Positions 2,322 to 62,957 of a stretch of 64,000 nucleotides of DNA are shown here, piece after piece; within the stretch, counting starts at the first letter, position 1; every line of letters starts with the position of its first letter. The translations under genes were made by a program, and so were the position numbers. The notes below the pieces were generated by a model. It did not search any database, was not told the origin of the DNA, and saw only the letters and a list, made by a program, of their open reading frames with translations. This stretch comes from a plasmid. Location: NCBI RefSeq assembly GCF_053078305.1, contig NZ_CP166875.1. One strand, written 5' to 3'.

Positions 2322-3818
2322 ATGGCTAAAGAACTAAGTGGATATGGCCCAACTGCTGGTGAGTCTATGGGGGGAACAGGGGCGAATCTGAATCAGCAAG
2401 GTGGAAATAATAATAGTAATAGTGGGGTTCACTGGGGTGGTGGTTCAGGCTCTGGTAATGGAGGTGGTGAACATGGAAGTCAGACGGGGTGGGGATGGAG
2501 TAAAACCAATAATCCGGATGTGCCGCCTTATGTTGATGATAATGGGCAGGTGCGCATTACCATTACAAATGGTCTGGTAAAAACGCCTGTATATGGAGTT
2601 CCTGAGGCTGGCGGAAATAGTGATGTTCAGGGGGGCTATATTCCTGAAAATCCTAATGATGAAGTTGCTCGTAAGTGGGATAAAAACAACTTACCGCGAG
2701 AGATTGATGTGAGTATCGATGGTTTTAAATATCGTGTAACGCTTAATGATAATGGTAGAGCTATCGGTATTCTTCGAACAGGTGTCCGTCCTTACGTAGG
2801 GAGTGAAAAAGCTAAGGCGGGTATTATGGAAAAAATCAATCATAAAACACCTGAGGAGATATATGAGGCGTTAGGTTTTAATAAAGATGAATCTCAGCGG
2901 CAGGAAAAAGCAAAACAACAGGCTGAAGATGCGTGGGATCGTTTGCCTCCTAATGTGAGAAAATTTGATGTTGATGTTGAACAGTTCCACTATTTAGTGG
3001 TGCTTGATGATTATGGTAATGTTTTATCTGTAACTAGAACAGCTGTTCGTCCTTATGTAGGGAGTGAAAAAGCTAAGGCTGGTATTATGGATAAAGTCGA
3101 CCATAAGACCCCGGAAGAGATATACGAGGCATTAGGATTTAATAATGAAGAGCCTCAACGACAGAATCAAGCTAAAAAAGCTGCTTATGATGTATTTTAT
3201 TCTTTCAGTATGAACCGTGACCGGATTCAGAGTGATGTGCTAAATAAAGCAGCTGAACTTATATCTGATATGGGTAACAAGATCGGTGATTATCTTGGTG
3301 AATCTTATAAGTCGTTAGCAAGAGAAATTGCTGATGATATCAAAAATTTCCAGGGGAAAACCATCCGTAGCTACGATGATGCAATGGAGTCATTAAATAA
3401 AATTTTGTCTAATCCTAGTTTTAAAGTTAACAGAGCAGACCGTGATGCACTGGTGAACGCCTGGCGAAGTCGTGATGCTCAGGATATAGCAAATAAACTG
3501 GGGAATATCAGTAAGGCTTTCAAAGCTGCCGATGTAATTATGAAGATTGAGAAGGTCAAGGAGAAAAGCATCGAGGGATATGAAACTGGAAACTGGGGGC
3601 CGCTGATGTTGGAGGTTGAGTCTTGGGTTCTCAGTGGTATGGCCGCAAGCGTTGCCATGACATTGCTTAGTGCTATAATTGGATCATTCACACTACCGGC
3701 GTTAGCATTAACTGCAATAAATATTGCAGGTATTATGGGAATTAGTTACCTTGCATCATATATTGATGCAAGTGTGGCTGAAAAAATAAATAATAAATTG
3801 GTTCATTTTACTCATTGA
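2322..3818 (+). CDS. csa: pore-forming colicin, colicin S4-like
   Basis: 498 aa. Gly-rich N-terminal translocation domain (GGTGANLNQQGGNNNSNSGVHWGGGSGSGNGGGEHGS), internally duplicated central segment (TGVRPYVGSEKAKAGIM.K..HKTPEEIYEALGFN occurs twice), C-terminal A-type pore domain with hydrophobic hairpin (GYETGNWGPLMLEVESWVLSGMAASVAMTLLSAIIGSF...). Length and duplicated receptor domain fit colicin S4 as recalled; not verified by search. Confidence 0.85.
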   Translation: MAKELSGYGPTAGESMGGTGANLNQQGGNNNSNSGVHWGGGSGSGNGGGEHGSQTGWGWSKTNNPDVPPYVDDNGQVRITITNGLVKTPVYGVPEAGGNSDVQGGYIPENPNDEVARKWDKNNLPREIDVSIDGFKYRVTLNDNGRAIGILRTGVRPYVGSEKAKAGIMEKINHKTPEEIYEALGFNKDESQRQEKAKQQAEDAWDRLPPNVRKFDVDVEQFHYLVVLDDYGNVLSVTRTAVRPYVGSEKAKAGIMDKVDHKTPEEIYEALGFNNEEPQRQNQAKKAAYDVFYSFSMNRDRIQSDVLNKAAELISDMGNKIGDYLGESYKSLAREIADDIKNFQGKTIRSYDDAMESLNKILSNPSFKVNRADRDALVNAWRSRDAQDIANKLGNISKAFKAADVIMKIEKVKEKSIEGYETGNWGPLMLEVESWVLSGMAASVAMTLLSAIIGSFTLPALALTAINIAGIMGISYLASYIDASVAEKINNKLVHFTH

Positions 3819-3840
3819 TAGAAAAAGAGAGGTGATCATA

Positions 3841-4374
3841 TCACTTCTCTTTAAACGACCTATAGGAACCAATACAAAACCAAAAATACAAATATGAGAA
3901 TATAAAAATAATGGAATGTAAGCTAATGTAAAAAAACGATAGGAGGATTATATTTACAGACATCAGTTTTAGCATTTTTGCAGAACTGGTTAGCTCCGTA
4001 TCAGCAAATAAAAAAGCATATATTAAGATAGCATAAAAAAAAGTGAAAAAAATATTTATTTTCAGTAGTTGCCATGGAGATTTATCATTTTTTAATCTAA
4101 GATTTTTACATGTGTTTAAAAATAAAAGAATGGCAGTGAAAGGAGCTGTTTTTACATACAGACTCAATGTTTTGCTAAATACTGGGGTGTTTTGTGAGTA
4201 TATGGCAGGTAGGTCATTTGCTCTCAATGCTATATAGTTTAATATATTGGATGTTGGATTGTGGATATATATAATGATTATTGAGAACATTGGGATTAGT
4301 GAAATTATAAGGAAGTAAAACATCTTTGTTGCTATTTTATTTCCTTTGTCTGTTTGGTGGTGTTTATTTATCAT
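3841..4374 (-). CDS. csi: colicin immunity protein (A-type, polytopic membrane)
   Basis: 177-aa ORF convergent with and immediately downstream of the colicin gene; four hydrophobic segments; size typical of A-type pore-colicin immunity proteins; AT-rich. Confidence 0.7.
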   Translation of the reverse strand: MINKHHQTDKGNKIATKMFYFLIISLIPMFSIIIIYIHNPTSNILNYIALRANDLPAIYSQNTPVFSKTLSLYVKTAPFTAILLFLNTCKNLRLKNDKSPWQLLKINIFFTFFYAILIYAFLFADTELTSSAKMLKLMSVNIILLSFFYISLHSIIFIFSYLYFWFCIGSYRSFKEK

Positions 4375-9931: not shown

Positions 9932-10130
9932 AAGCTGTCGCTTATGGCGGAAACAGAATGCCGTGCGTTAATGCACTGCGAAGGGTTGAATCTCTGGTAC
10001 GGTTTCATATATACTTATCCCGTATTCTGTGAGGCCCCCATTATCTTTCTCTGATTCCGCCAAGTTTCGTGGAAAGATGATGGGGGTTTTCCTTTATGGC
10101 CTTCTGAAACTTTTTTCAGCCTTCCGGCCC
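9932..10130 (-). promoter_or_regulatory. repA leader / antisense-RNA control region (inferred)
   Basis: Region upstream of repA on the coding strand; contains 5'-TTGGCG-3' on the repA mRNA strand (window 10057-10062), the loop hexanucleotide used in antisense-RNA control of I-complex/IncFII replicons. No copB/repA2 ORF upstream. Confidence 0.35.
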
Positions 10131-27572: not shown

Positions 27573-28937
27573 ATGCAAAAAGACGACGATAAAGGTTTTG
27601 TTCTGTTTGAAATTCTGGCCGGACTGATTGTGATCGGTATCGCCACACCAATGATTTATTCAGAAATTGAAAACTGGCTGAATGAGCAGCTTTACCAGAG
27701 TGCTGCATATCATGCAGATGCCTACAATACCGCAGCCAGAAACTATATTGCCGACAACAATGCCCGTCTGCATAGCGGCAGCCTTCCGGCAAATTTCACG
27801 GCTGATGATCTGATTCGTCAGGGATATCTGAAACAGGGGTTTAACCATTCTCCGTTTGGTCAGAGTTATATCACCGGTATCCGCCGTAACCAGACCACCG
27901 GGCGTCTGGAAGCCCTGACCTGCTCAACTGGAGGGCAGACAATCAAAGAAGAAGGGCTGCGTAGTGTGGCGGGTCAGTTGCCGGGGCTGGGTGGATTTAT
28001 CAGCAAAAACGGAACGGCAACAGGCGCATTCGGAGCCTGGACAGATAAACCGGGAGACTACGGACTTACCTGTTCGACAGGTCACATCGCCGTCGTCATG
28101 AGCGGTGATGACCTGCAGGAAAGTGACCGTCTCTACCGTTTTCAGGTAGCAGGTCGTCCTGAACTGAATCAGATGCATACTGCAATAAATATGGGCGGGA
28201 ATAACATAAACAACACCGGCAATATCAATGGTCAGAGTGCCACACTGAAAGGTGATATTACGAGTGAAGACGGCTGGCTAATCACCAGAAACAATAAGGG
28301 ATGGATGAATATCACACATGGTGGTGGATTCACCATGACGGACAGCCAGTGGATACGCGCGGTTAATGGCAAAGGCATCACAACCACCGGGGAAATCAAA
28401 GGGGGGAAAGTCAGTGGTGGTACAGTCCGGTCTGACGGTCGTCTTTCAACCGGGGAGTATTTACAGCTTGATAAAACAGCTACGGCAGGCACAAAGTGTT
28501 CACCGGACGGACTTGTAGGCCGCACCAGTACAGGGGCCATACTTTCGTGCCAATCCGGTATGTGGGCAGGTTTTGAATCCTACCCTGTCGGAAGCCCTAT
28601 ACCGTGGCCATCAGCCACCCCTCCACAAGGCTACCTGGTGATGAACGGGCAGTCATTTTCATGTTCCCGGTATCCTCAGCTTGCCCGTGCTTATCCCGGG
28701 TGTAAGCTGCCGGATTTGCGCGGTGTTTTTATCCGTGGCTGGGACAACGGACGTGGGCTGGATGGAGATCGGAACAGACATCTCCTGAGTTATCAGGCCG
28801 ATCAATCCGGTGTCTATCATGAGCGTGGGGGATGGCTGAAAGGGCATCACAGCGGTATGCCTTACTGGGCCCAGGGAAGCACAACGGAAATGCGCCCCAA
28901 AAACATTGCCTTTAACTACATCGTCAAAGCAAGCTGA
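27573..28937 (+). CDS. pilV: minor pilin / adhesin PilV (shufflon-variable C-terminus)
   Basis: ATG 27573 with GGAGGG Shine-Dalgarno; prepilin-like leader MQKDDDKG followed by FVLFEILAGLIVIGIA; constant region ends at the 19-bp sfx repeat at 28547-28565. Confidence 0.8.
   Translation: MQKDDDKGFVLFEILAGLIVIGIATPMIYSEIENWLNEQLYQSAAYHADAYNTAARNYIADNNARLHSGSLPANFTADDLIRQGYLKQGFNHSPFGQSYITGIRRNQTTGRLEALTCSTGGQTIKEEGLRSVAGQLPGLGGFISKNGTATGAFGAWTDKPGDYGLTCSTGHIAVVMSGDDLQESDRLYRFQVAGRPELNQMHTAINMGGNNINNTGNINGQSATLKGDITSEDGWLITRNNKGWMNITHGGGFTMTDSQWIRAVNGKGITTTGEIKGGKVSGGTVRSDGRLSTGEYLQLDKTATAGTKCSPDGLVGRTSTGAILSCQSGMWAGFESYPVGSPIPWPSATPPQGYLVMNGQSFSCSRYPQLARAYPGCKLPDLRGVFIRGWDNGRGLDGDRNRHLLSYQADQSGVYHERGGWLKGHHSGMPYWAQGSTTEMRPKNIAFNYIVKAS
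28547..28565 (+). repeat. shufflon 19-bp recombination site (sfx) inside pilV
   Basis: GTGCCAATCCGGTATGTGG; inverted copies at 29183-29201 and 29471-29489. Confidence 0.8.
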
Positions 28938-28942
28938 TGCAT

Positions 28943-29182
28943 TTAAGGCGTATTAACTTTTAACTTACAGCAACGTATTTTGACCCAGACCATGCTTCCC
29001 GAATACCCCGGTTTACCTCTGTACGCTCTGAATCCTGCCGCACCATAGCCTGCTTTGCCGTCACAGACGGCAAAGCCGTTTGAGCCACTACCCCAGTTCG
29101 CATAAACCGGTTTTCTGGAGTCTTCTTCTGCGTCATAACAGGCCGAATAATCAAAAACCAGTGCATCGCTGATATTATTCTT
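28943..29182 (-). other. alternative pilV C-terminal coding segment (shufflon segment, currently inverted)
   Basis: Reading the reverse strand from sfx 29183-29201 in the pilV codon phase gives an open frame CQSGVWKNNISDALVFDYSACYDAEEDSRKPVYANWGSGSNGFAVCDGKAGYGAAGF... ending at TAA (28943-28945). Confidence 0.5.
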
Positions 29183-29201
29183 CCAGACACCGGATTGGCA
29201 C
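29183..29201 (-). repeat. shufflon 19-bp recombination site (sfx)
   Basis: Reverse complement GTGCCAATCCGGTGTCTGG; inverted relative to 28547-28565. Confidence 0.8.
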
Positions 29202-29224
29202 GCTGGCTACTGCCTGACGCTTAA

Positions 29225-29470
29225 TTAAATACCGGCCCCAGGTATATTGAGACACGTAACAGATATCGTTCCACCTGACTCATAATTACCCCACGCATAA
29301 TTATTGACATACCAGACATTATTTTTATCGGAATAAACCTGCTGAAAACCACCGAAAGGAGAACCATTAAGATACGTCCATGCACAATATGCATGGACAC
29401 CAAGTCTGAAATTACGAATATTTTTTCCGATGTTATAGGTCTGCGTTGTGAATTTAATTTCAGTTGACCG
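29225..29470 (-). other. second alternative pilV C-terminal coding segment (shufflon)
   Basis: Reverse-strand frame in phase with sfx 29471-29489 encodes [91 protein letters not shown]. Confidence 0.5.
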
Positions 29471-29489
29471 CCAGACACCGGATTGGCAC
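29471..29489 (-). repeat. shufflon 19-bp recombination site (sfx) adjacent to rci
   Basis: Reverse complement GTGCCAATCCGGTGTCTGG, identical to the copy at 29183-29201. Confidence 0.8.
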
Positions 29490-29551
29490 GAAAGTATTGC
29501 ATTTCTGTATCCAGCCTCCTACCTTCCCCGTTTTTATCGTGGAAGGCAGAT

Positions 29552-30721
29552 ATGTTTCAAAAAAACAAAACTCGCAAAATGTCCCTCAGCCGGGCACTGG
29601 ACAAATACCTGAAGACTGTTTCCGTCCATAAAAAAGGTCATCTGCAGGAGTTTTATCGCGTCAATGTGATTAAACGTCACCCTATGGCCGATCGCTATAT
29701 GGATGAAATCACTACCATTGATATCGCCAGTTACCGGGATCAGCGTTTAGCTCAAATTAACCCACGAACAGGGCGTCAAATCACCGGAAATACCGTCCGT
29801 CTTGAACTTGCCCTTTTATCATCATTATTCAATATCGCCCGTGTGGAATGGGGAACATGCCGTATGAATCCTGTTGAACTGGTCCGAAAACCGAAAATCA
29901 GTAATGGCCGCGACCGCCGACTGACTTCTGGTGAAGAACGCCGCCTTTCCCGCTATTTCAGGGACAAAAATCCGCAGCTCTACGTTATCTTCCATCTGGC
30001 TCTGGAAACAGCAATGCGCCAGGGAGAAATTCTCTCATTACGCTGGGAACACCTCGATTTGCAGCACGGCGTGGCGCATCTTCCTGAAACGAAAAATGGC
30101 TCACCACGCGATGTCCCACTCTCCCGGAAAGCACGTAACTACCTGCAAATTCTGCCACAACAGATAAACGGCAATGTGTTCAGTTACACCTCGTCCGGTT
30201 TCAAAAGCGCCTGGCGTACCACTCTTCTGGATCTGAAAATAGAAAATCTGCATTTTCACGATCTCCGCCATGAGGCCATCAGCCGTTTGTTCGAGCTCGG
30301 CACACTGAACGTTATGGAGATTGCAGCCATTTCCGGTCACCGCTCCCTGAACATGTTGAAACGGTACACACATCTCCGGGCATATCACCTGGTCAGTAAA
30401 CTCGATGCAAGGCGTAAACAGACCAGCAAAATTTCCCCTTATTTTGTTCCCTACCCTGCAACTGTCAGAAACAGAAACGGAGTGTTCATTGTGACACTGC
30501 ACGATTTCGACCTTGAAAGCCGTGCTGAAACCCGGGAACTGGCAATATCTCACGCCAGCGTATTGTTGCTGCGCGCACTGGCCCAGGCTGCTCAGCGGGG
30601 TGAACGCGTCCCCACACCAGGCGAGCTACCCGCAAACATTGATGAACGGGTCATGATTTGTCCGTTAACAAACAGCCAGTTCATGACAAAAGCGAACAGT
30701 ATTTTCATATCCTCCTCCTGA
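29552..30721 (+). CDS. rci: shufflon-specific tyrosine recombinase Rci
   Basis: Tyrosine-recombinase motifs (...[20 protein letters not shown]..., [17 protein letters not shown], ...LKRYTHL); located just past the last sfx repeat; start taken at ATG 29552 (GGAAGG Shine-Dalgarno). Confidence 0.85.
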
Positions 30722-58848: not shown

Positions 58849-59467
58849 TGACGCACAGGACGGAAAAAATAATAGCTGCCGGACAGCAGCAACCAGCAGT
58901 CGTCCGGTAAAAAAGACAAACAAGGCGCATTGAGGTCAGCCTTCGCAACAATCCGGCGGCAGATTCTCTACCGCCGTGTTGCCCGTTAACGTTTAACTTC
59001 GTAGGCTAACGTTGCCACAAGCACCGTATTTCCCTGCTCGATACGAAATCCGCAAAGCGAATCCCTCACCATCCAGACAAAACACAGTATCGTCACACAG
59101 ACGACGATTAACATCATTAAAAACGTTCGTTGTGGCATCGCAGCCCCTCCATTGCCTTTCGGCCGTCATCGGGCTACTATAATGTTGTTGAGGCATTACA
59201 GTGGGCCCTGGGTTGATTGATAAAAAAATCGCCTGGGGCTTTCTGCTACATGCCGTCCACAAAACGCTTTCGGCATACAGCCTCAAGCGCCCGCCGCTAT
59301 TCTAATCGTTTTCCAGTCCGCCACAATCCTTTTCATGCCACCACGTATTTTGTGTCAGGGACAGAAATAAAGCCGGAAAGTGACTACGTGTGCACACATC
59401 TGTTTTCCGGGCTGCAGGCATCGTGTTATTTTCTGAAATGCAAAATAATAAAAAACAAGGACACATC

Positions 59468-62784: not shown

Positions 62785-62957
62785 TTCATAGTCAGTTATA
62801 GGCAGTTATCTTCCGGTCAGGGCTACCAACTTCGATCCGGAATCGCAAAAAAACCGGCCTCACCAGTCGGTTTTTTTGCGTCTGTACCTCCTCCCCGGAC
62901 AGCAGTTCTCTCACTCCCGTTGAATATTTCCTGTTGAATTTTACGAAAATACGGCAA

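Follow-up and report, generated by a model that had tools for sequence, protein, structure and literature searches.

Shufflons determine which bacteria come within reach of the resistance and virulence plasmids of the I-complex, whether in liquid or in the gut. They are also a known source of assembly errors. In R64 and TP114 the PilV tail sets recipient specificity in liquid mating; the tails of R64 are reported to bind the lipopolysaccharide (LPS, core sugars) of the recipient, and in TP114 deletion of rci locks the shufflon (PMC9045228); mechanism and function in relatives are also described in PMC5350095 and PMC3377399. Near-identical IncK2 and IncK1 (pCT) plasmids, which differ mainly in the shufflon, carry between 2 and 8 sfx sites (PMC5350095, PMC3377399, PMC4083329). 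Venturini et al. (2013) described the shufflon of the IncZ plasmids pO26-CRL125 (EHEC O26) and pO111-CRL115 (aEPEC O111) (PMC3817090), and Milman et al. (2023) reported a fusion of PilV to a phage tail collar as a target of programmed inversion (UCP91044.1 in CP084655.1; PMC9881135).

Here we analyzed a 64,000-nucleotide stretch of plasmid DNA, hereafter the window. It very probably contains a small and active shufflon, carried by a conjugative plasmid of type IncK2/Z (I-complex), in which the exchangeable PilV tail would serve as the pilus-tip adhesin that sets the recipients. This type of shufflon is already known, and the very element in the window was published in 2013 and is annotated; no new principle is involved. 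The plasmid family that carries it is common in STEC O26/O111 and in livestock E. coli.

pilV and the plasmid backbone

The constant region of pilV (27573..28546, plus strand) encodes a prepilin leader (MQKDDDKG, followed by FVLFE) and a Shufflon_N domain. Residues 34-329 of PilV match Pfam Shufflon_N (PF04917, E 1e-61 and 5e-45), and the protein is 42% identical to R64 PilV over 369 aa. NCBIfam scans of PilV and of the two silent tails returned no matches. Over this region the window is 100% identical to many E. coli plasmids, and the RefSeq label reads “shufflon system ... PilV”. According to the PGAP annotation of the identical plasmids, pilV closes the type IVb thin-pilus operon pilI-pilV, which is complete and has traE-traJ as neighbors. 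These plasmids are typed IncK2/Z, MOBP and MPF_I, and the window contains a repZ pseudoknot (PK-repZ) at 9944-10094.

Array layout and sfx sites

The array is delimited by three sfx sites. The first, sfx1 (28547-28565, plus strand, GTGCCAATCCGGTATGTGG), consists of the 7-bp core GTGCCAA and a 12-bp right arm. It sits in the pilV reading frame where the constant region ends, and encodes (S)CQSGMW. The other two, sfx2 (29183-29201) and sfx3 (29471-29489), are both on the minus strand with the sequence GTGCCAATCCGGTGTCTGG, and each heads a 3′ end in phase with pilV; sfx3 forms the end of the shufflon nearest rci. The preliminary description, which had placed a 19-bp repeat once in pilV and twice in inverted orientation downstream, was therefore accurate. 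It had overlooked that sfx2, inverted relative to sfx1, is direct relative to sfx3, and that sfx1 and sfx3 are part of a longer, 30-nt inverted repeat (28536-28565 / 29471-29500, 90%), which arises as the left flank of sfx3 is a second copy of the AILS codons of pilV.

The sfx2 and sfx3 sites are perfect 20-nt copies of each other with differing left arms, and each differs from sfx1 at two positions, both within the known variable triplet. The core GTGCCAA and the right arm TCCGGTNNNTGG match the pattern GTGCCAATCCGGTNNNTGG exactly at all three sites, and the same pattern recovers the 7 sites of R64 (reference record NC_005014, which is without the pilVA-D′ names). The arrangement of core and arm is as in R64, TP114 and IncK2 (PMC9045228, PMC5350095). 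No further copy was found in the 64 kb at up to 3 mismatches, 100 shuffles of the sequence yielded 0 matches, and the conserved 13-nt part of the site is confined to the positions of sfx1, sfx2 and sfx3. A scan of 28400-29700 for promoters and terminators gave counts no higher than those of shuffled sequence. We considered a vestigial back-to-back sfx beside sfx2 (29202-29228) and rejected it, with about 5 bases matching the paired sites of R64.

Both members of the direct pair sfx2 and sfx3 are retained in more than 40 plasmids, and the interval from sfx2 to sfx3 is exactly absent from 96%-identical relatives, by deletion or insertion. Gyohda et al. (2006) reportedly found that shufflons undergo inversions only, with no deletion between direct sfx sites, owing to site asymmetry.

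The three tails

Tail 1, which is fused to pilV in the window, spans 28566..28937 on the plus strand and encodes 123 aa followed by a stop. Its homologues are the C-terminal tips of phage side tail fibers, and it matches Pfam Collar (PF07484, E 7e-12) and PHROG 523 and 3100 (E 1e-42 and 1e-40), as well as 707 phage records. Compared with the last 152 aa of the Stf protein of phage HK106, it shows 44% identity, and the alignment reaches the final residue. It is longer than tails 2 and 3 and different in kind, which the preliminary description had missed. Tail 1 contains a 13-nt sfx-like stretch at 28803-28815; a composite origin of the tail, with this stretch as a relic site, is unlikely, as the alignment with phage Stf C-termini covers the tail over its full length.

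The two remaining tails are silent. Tail 2 (28943..29182, minus strand) is convergent with tail 1 and comprises 79 aa beyond sfx2, ending in ...IRCCKLKVNTP, whereas tail 3 (29225..29470, minus strand) lies in a single-ORF segment and comprises 81 aa beyond sfx3. Counted with their stops, these are the open frames of 80 and 82 codons that the preliminary description had read leftwards from the inverted sites; read in the phase of pilV from the Cys encoded by sfx, they extend to 85 aa (tail 2) and 87 aa (tail 3). The frame of tail 2 has a stop 2 codons upstream of sfx2 and no start codon after it, and the frame of tail 3 likewise follows an upstream stop and lacks a start codon. With an in-frame upstream stop and no start codon in either of these promoterless tails, only the fused tail is made.

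A PHROGs search of tails 2 and 3 gave no matches, and we therefore consider them not phage-like. One PilV tail of R64 is 85% identical to tail 3. The tails had been characterized as rich in Gly, Tyr and Trp, which is correct for the two aromatic residues (Tyr 6.5-8.6% in the three tails vs 3.1% in the constant region; Trp 2.5-3.7% vs 1.5%) and incorrect for Gly, which makes up 12-13% of the tails and 14.5% of the constant region.

The recombinase Rci

The rci gene (29552-30721, plus strand) encodes an intact, shufflon-specific tyrosine recombinase of 389 aa. The protein contains a Phage_integrase domain (PF00589, E 2e-24) and is 75% identical to R64 Rci over 373 aa, including the Rci-specific domain in the C-terminal stretch of about 85 aa, and shares with it the motifs MRQGE, HDLRH and GH...Y. 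Because an NCBIfam scan of Rci produced only sub-threshold, Xer-like matches, the identification rests on Pfam and the comparison with R64. The adjoining tyrosine recombinase announced in the preliminary description is thus present, and with it all structural elements of the small multiple-inversion system that it had proposed, each of them intact. By analogy with R64, Rci is the probable catalyst of the inversions.

Inversion isomers in public plasmids

We constructed the four arrangements attainable by inversion and searched for them in public plasmids, approximating through assemblies the detection of inversion isomers in a population that had been suggested earlier. Three of the four are present at 100% identity. 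The arrangement of the window (state 0) occurs in about 37 plasmids at an identity of at least 99.4% over the full length. Recombination of sfx1 with sfx3 (state 2) is represented by 6 plasmids at 100% identity, in all of which tail 3 is joined to pilV, and recombination of sfx1 with sfx2 (state 1) by NZ_CP074980.1 at 100%, as well as by CP027379 at 95.7%. Tail 2 is joined to pilV, itself at 100% identity, in NZ_CP074980.1, and also in pECOED-type relatives. State 3, with tail 3 fused and the distal segment re-inverted, was absent from the plasmids and complete E. coli genomes searched. State 1 is the rarest of the observed states among the near-identical plasmids, with a single record, compared with 6 in state 2 and 37 in state 0; sfx2 could be a poorer partner, or the rarity could reflect sampling and clonality. 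The same Rci protein, WP_000486835.1, is encoded by plasmids of all three observed states.

The plasmids CP057335 and CP057341 are both 119,787 bp long and come from one farm sample. Over 17,543 bp their sole difference is a precise inversion of 959 bp with the repeats at its boundaries (sfx1 × sfx3), and the variable triplets ATG and GTC travel with the cassette, as predicted by a model with crossover in the core. Since this pair from the same farm differs by an exact inversion, the switch is active in nature, as seen in public plasmids of this family. An assembled shufflon may represent the consensus artifact of a mixed population, which would itself imply switching.

Proposed mechanism and alternative explanations

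The layout of the DNA and the occurrence of inversions are direct observations, from which we propose the following model. The pilV gene consists of a constant part up to sfx1 and an exchangeable 3′ end, and Rci would join sfx1 with either of the oppositely oriented sites, sfx2 or sfx3. Crossover is expected within the 7-bp core GTGCCAA, such that the 12-bp right arm moves with the cassette. Recombination between sfx1 and sfx2 would invert a 617-bp segment with tails 1 and 2 and fuse tail 2 to pilV, while recombination between sfx1 and sfx3 would invert the entire array (905 bp between the repeats) and fuse tail 3. After the latter event, sfx2 and the distal site would face each other, allowing for a fourth arrangement in which tail 3 is still expressed. 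The array could thereby adopt four arrangements and encode PilV in three forms, of 454, 410 and 412 aa. By analogy with R64, pCT and TP114, the fused tail may act as a pilus-tip adhesin for surface structures of the recipient, and would in this way decide which recipients mate efficiently in liquid. Recipient specificity set by the tail in liquid mating is what these relatives suggest for the window, through the homology of tail 3 to an R64 tail and of tail 1 to phage receptor-binding tips.

We weighed two alternatives to this model. That the array is a frozen relic, derived from a shufflon, in which inversion has ceased in this plasmid lineage and the observed arrangement is fixed, would accommodate the predominance of the window's arrangement (37/44 near-identical plasmids) and the reduction of the array to 3 sfx sites vs 7 in R64, and inactive shufflons have been reported for some I-complex plasmids (PMC3377399). 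Against it stand an intact rci whose product is identical across three different arrangements, the perfect 20-nt identity of sfx2 and sfx3, and the plasmids from the same sample that differ by a precise inversion alone; we give a frozen array almost no credence.

It is also conceivable that the inversions are real and that their main role lies in host adhesion, self-aggregation or biofilm formation, for instance through a changed or lowered output of PilV. Such a route has been put forward for the pil/rci locus in the chromosome of Salmonella Typhi. Venturini et al. compare this shufflon with those of S. Typhi and S. Hadar ICESe4, which have a single segment, and give its rci as 92% identical to an ICESe4 gene (PMC3817090); the authors of the pCT study speculate on adhesion and biofilm (PMC3377399). 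Related shufflons are, moreover, present in E. coli chromosomes, and the plasmids that host the array occur frequently in STEC and aEPEC. The locus, however, is embedded in a conjugative pil/tra backbone that is complete, tail 3 closely resembles an R64 tail (85% identity), of a kind reported to bind recipient LPS (PMC9045228), and a phage receptor-binding tip such as tail 1 fits the recognition of bacterial surfaces. We regard a main role in adhesion as very unlikely, and favor the active shufflon that sets the recipients of the conjugative plasmid.

A plausible though still tentative extension of this favored model is that tail 1 is the receptor-binding tip of a phage side tail fiber grafted onto the pilus adhesin, with the plasmid family switching among one tip of phage origin and two classical PilV tips. 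If true, plasmid and phage would compete for, or share, a receptor on the recipient, and the plasmid would do so without the tail-fiber assembly chaperone that phages encode beside such tips. That the tail most commonly fused to pilV in assemblies is a phage tail-fiber tip suggests that the receptors of phages and of plasmid transfer could overlap.

Comparison with known shufflons

The element shares with the R64/ColIb-P9 shufflons of IncI1 (Komano 1999) the 7-bp core, the 12-bp right arm and the site at the border between the constant and variable parts of pilV (CQSG.W). R64 also contains a one-ORF segment bounded by sfx sites of the same orientation, beside a two-ORF segment (9243+, 9572+, 10127-). 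The R64 shufflon is larger, with 7 sfx sites, 4 segments and 7 tails compared with 3 sites and 3 tails in the window, and the variable triplets differ (ACC, CGG, ACT and ACG in the R64 record; ATG and GTC here). Tails 1 and 2 are without an R64 counterpart. The IncK2 and IncK1 (pCT) shufflons share the plasmid complex and the core site, but have other cassettes and the repeat types tcg, atc, gtg and ttg, none of which is seen in the window's element (PMC5350095, PMC3377399, PMC4083329).

In IncK2/Z plasmids of the pECOED type, two sfx sites enclose tails 1 and 2, at 96% identity, and in a gapless alignment this array corresponds to that of the window minus the exact interval from sfx2 to sfx3. 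Such single-segment shufflons (pECOED and, according to PMC3817090, those of S. Typhi and S. Hadar ICESe4) are without the tail 3 cassette and yield only two forms of PilV.

Essentially the same element as in the window is found in pO26-CRL125/pO111-CRL115, with 99.5% identity over a 1543-bp test stretch, the same arrangement and the same three sfx sites. Venturini et al., who termed the tail 3 segment B-homologous, published it as one invertible segment bearing two tails, whereas the record contains three sites and three tails (PMC3817090). The published description therefore needs revision, as the element has three sites, three tails and four states. This revised cassette count, and the activity read from public data, are of modest practical value.

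The fusion reported by Milman et al. shares, by its description, a Shufflon_N constant part and a Collar (PF07484) tail exchanged by inversion (PMC9881135). It belongs to another locus and organism record, whereas the collar tail of the window is one among three cassettes and sits on an E. coli plasmid that is widespread.

Shufflon architecture and plasmid setting

The array is organized around three 19-bp sfx sites: sfx1 at 28547-28565 (+, GTGCCAATCCGGTATGTGG), in frame within pilV (27573-28937), and two copies of a second 19-mer, GTGCCAATCCGGTGTCTGG, namely sfx2 at 29183-29201 (-) and sfx3 at 29471-29489 (-). The preliminary description had placed one repeat in pilV and two inverted copies downstream, and these are exactly the sites present: no further copy with up to 3 mismatches occurs across the 64-kb window, shuffled sequences gave zero matches, and the conserved 13-mer of sfx falls at the same three positions only. 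Over 20 nt, sfx2 and sfx3 have the same sequence, and they are oriented as direct repeats. Since the AILS codons of pilV recur in the left flank of sfx3, sfx1 and sfx3 are embedded in a longer, 30-nt inverted repeat.

The order of elements is constant pilV, sfx1(+), segment X, sfx2(-), segment Y, sfx3(-), 62 bp and rci. Segment X (617 bp, between sfx1 and sfx2) contains tail 1 in forward and tail 2 in reverse orientation, 5 bp apart, while segment Y (269 bp, between sfx2 and sfx3) contains tail 3 only, in reverse. PilV residues 34-329 form the Pfam Shufflon_N domain, and the expressed tail is tail 1 (28566-28937, +). Reading the - strand in pilV phase from sfx2 and sfx3 confirmed the inverted frames noticed earlier: they are open for 85 and 87 aa from Cys, corresponding to 80 and 82 codons past the repeat, stop included. 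No start codon is present in tail 2 or tail 3, and a stop in the same frame closely precedes each of them; they can therefore be expressed only once fused to pilV. The tails had also been described as rich in Gly, Tyr and Trp. Tyr and Trp, along with Cys, are indeed higher than in the PilV constant region, but the composition comparison revealed no enrichment of Gly.

The adjacent tyrosine recombinase proved intact. The rci gene (29552-30721) encodes a Phage_integrase-domain protein that shares 75% identity with R64 Rci across 373 aa, a span including the recombinase motifs and the C-terminal extension. Given this identity to a purified enzyme, and given that deletion of rci locks the arrangement in TP114 (PMC9045228), Rci is probably the inversion catalyst. 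The 62-bp gap between sfx3 and rci (29490-29551) contains an inverted repeat, CCTTCC-N13-GGAAGG, at 29519-29543, just 5' of the rci ATG; the terminator scan made no call there.

Over the 3.1-kb pilV-rci stretch, about 20 E. coli plasmids match the window at 100% identity. A complete thin-pilus operon, pilI to pilV with named genes including pilM, pilO2 and pilP, lies upstream, and traE-traJ genes follow the shufflon. The Rfam pseudoknot PK-repZ of the repZ regulatory region, at 9944-10094 (-; 166.7 bits), marks the I-complex replicon of the plasmid. Elsewhere, an Rfam sok antitoxin RNA at 59136-59292 (-; 124.7 bits) indicates a hok/sok-type post-segregational killing locus, and the antisense RNA AgrB is a marginal match at 62792-62879 (+; 47.7 bits, gathering score 40).

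Predicted arrangements and natural isomers

Assuming crossover within the 7-bp core, as in R64 and TP114 (PMC9045228, PMC5350095), inversions would allow four arrangements. In state 0, that of the window, tail 1 would be expressed in a PilV of 454 aa; sfx1 x sfx2 inversion would yield state 1, with tail 2 (410 aa), and sfx1 x sfx3 inversion state 2, with tail 3 (412 aa). In state 3, X would be re-inverted at the distal position, with tail 3 still expressed.

We searched the four predicted 1543-bp sequences in PLSDB, and two of them also in all complete E. coli genomes. Thirty-seven plasmids carry state 0 full length and in one piece (≥99.4% identity), and six carry state 2 at 100% identity. 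State 1 reached at best 95.7% in PLSDB (CP027379) and matched at 100% in one RefSeq E. coli plasmid, p12690-3 (NZ_CP074980.1), where PGAP annotates tail 1, now inverted, as an incomplete 'phage tail protein'. State 3 had no match in PLSDB or complete E. coli genomes.

The clearest case of inversion among public plasmids is the pair pRHB29-C23_2 (CP057335) and pRHB29-C18_2 (CP057341), each of 119,787 bp and from one shared pooled sheep-faeces sample. Across 17,543 bp they are identical save for an exactly reverse-complemented 959-bp interval bounded by the extended repeat, and the right-arm triplets ATG and GTC move together with the cassettes. This natural equivalent of the isomer search proposed earlier shows inversion in nature at the level of the plasmid lineage, not of the source strain itself. 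Sites, in-phase silent cassettes and natural isomers with exact breakpoints thus support the multiple-inversion system of the preliminary description.

Relatives with other arrays

About 12 IncK2/Z plasmids at ~96% identity, including pECOED, have two sfx sites only, with tails 1 and 2, and both orientations occur among them; in pECOED (NC_011754.1, array at 3301-3955 of the record used) the tail 3 cassette is absent. State 1 minus the exact core-to-core sfx2-sfx3 interval aligns with pECOED without gaps (1255 nt, 96.0%), and tail 3 was therefore gained or lost as a cassette with its ends exactly at sfx sites. This exact gain or loss stands despite the reported lack of Rci recombination between direct repeats: Gyohda et al. 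2006 (cited in PMC5430464) are said to have found that Rci makes no deletion between direct sfx sites, which fits the retention of both sfx2 and sfx3 in >40 plasmids.

Units of pilV, shufflon and rci that are 90-93% related, with pil and traF neighbours, also occur in E. coli chromosomes, namely that of strain G8 (NZ_CP060057.1, 5298-8572 of the record used) and NZ_CM129862.1, presumably as an integrated conjugative element or integrated plasmid. Frameshifts break pilV inside tail 1 in pMRY16-002_3 (NZ_AP017613.1, 1501-2765) and alter the C-terminal end of tail 2 in CP027379.1 (3300-3560; ...GKPGIREAWSGSKYVAVS), which suggests relaxed selection on individual tails, or sequencing errors.

Origin of the tails

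Tail 1 differs in kind from tails 2 and 3. In Pfam it is assigned a Collar domain (E 7e-12); tail-fibre families in PHROG score E ≤1e-40 against it, and its sequence matches 707 phage records. Over its whole length it is homologous to the C-terminal end of side tail fibres from phages. The alignment to HK106 Stf (44%) covers the last 152 residues, up to the C-terminal ...RP(K/R)NIAFNYIV(K/R)AS, with the middle shortened. In phages, a tail-fibre assembly gene follows such tips; none is annotated near pilV in an identical plasmid. A Shufflon_N-Collar fusion as inversion target was called new in 2023 at a different locus, with the suggestion that the Collar part is a phage domain repurposed for recipient recognition (PMC9881135).

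Within tail 1, CAATCCGGTGTCT at 28803-28815 (+) reproduces 13 nt from the middle of sfx2/sfx3 without a mismatch. It lies where the phage-Stf-like domain is variable, in its middle part, and encodes DQSGVY versus CQSGVW at sfx, the flanks differing (GATC for GTGC, TAT for TGG). A chance 13-mer match within 3.3 kb is unlikely; the copy may be what is left of a former site, the product of gene conversion, or a coincidence.

One of the R64 tails (site 9216- in the R64 record) shares 85% identity with tail 3, which Venturini et al. refer to as the 'B-homologous segment'. For tail 2, neither the R64 tails nor PHROGs or NCBIfam gave a significant match; it ends in a Cys pair, and the R64 tails examined likewise have Cys near their C-termini.

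Function and comparison with known shufflons

By analogy with R64, whose tails bind particular sugars of the LPS core (PMC9045228), the PilV tail would act as a tip adhesin selecting recipients in liquid mating. That the array is a frozen relic which no longer inverts is unlikely, as the natural isomers speak against it. A main role in adhesion or aggregation instead of mating is likewise unlikely or at most secondary, with recipient selection better suiting both the conjugative setting and the phage-tip tail.

Shufflons are textbook systems, known from R64 (Komano 1999), pCT, IncK2 plasmids and the IncI2 plasmids R721 and TP114. The local topology is that of R64, where a one-ORF segment with same-orientation sfx sites lies beside a two-ORF segment (9243+, 9572+ and 10127- in its record), and RefSeq already names the gene shufflon PilV. 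The same shufflon has been published from pO26-CRL125 and pO111-CRL115, where it was described as having 'a single invertible segment' and 'two possible PilV C-termini' and called 'a unique shufflon' (PMC3817090). The pO26-CRL125 record (NC_022996.1, 1801-2742) has three sfx sites, as in the window, and three tails. Because both kinds of inversion, sfx1 x sfx2 and sfx1 x sfx3, are found in nature, that account is incomplete. The shufflon is thus a known member of a known system with its cassette count corrected; this correction and the apparently phage-derived tail are minor points, a refinement and no discovery.
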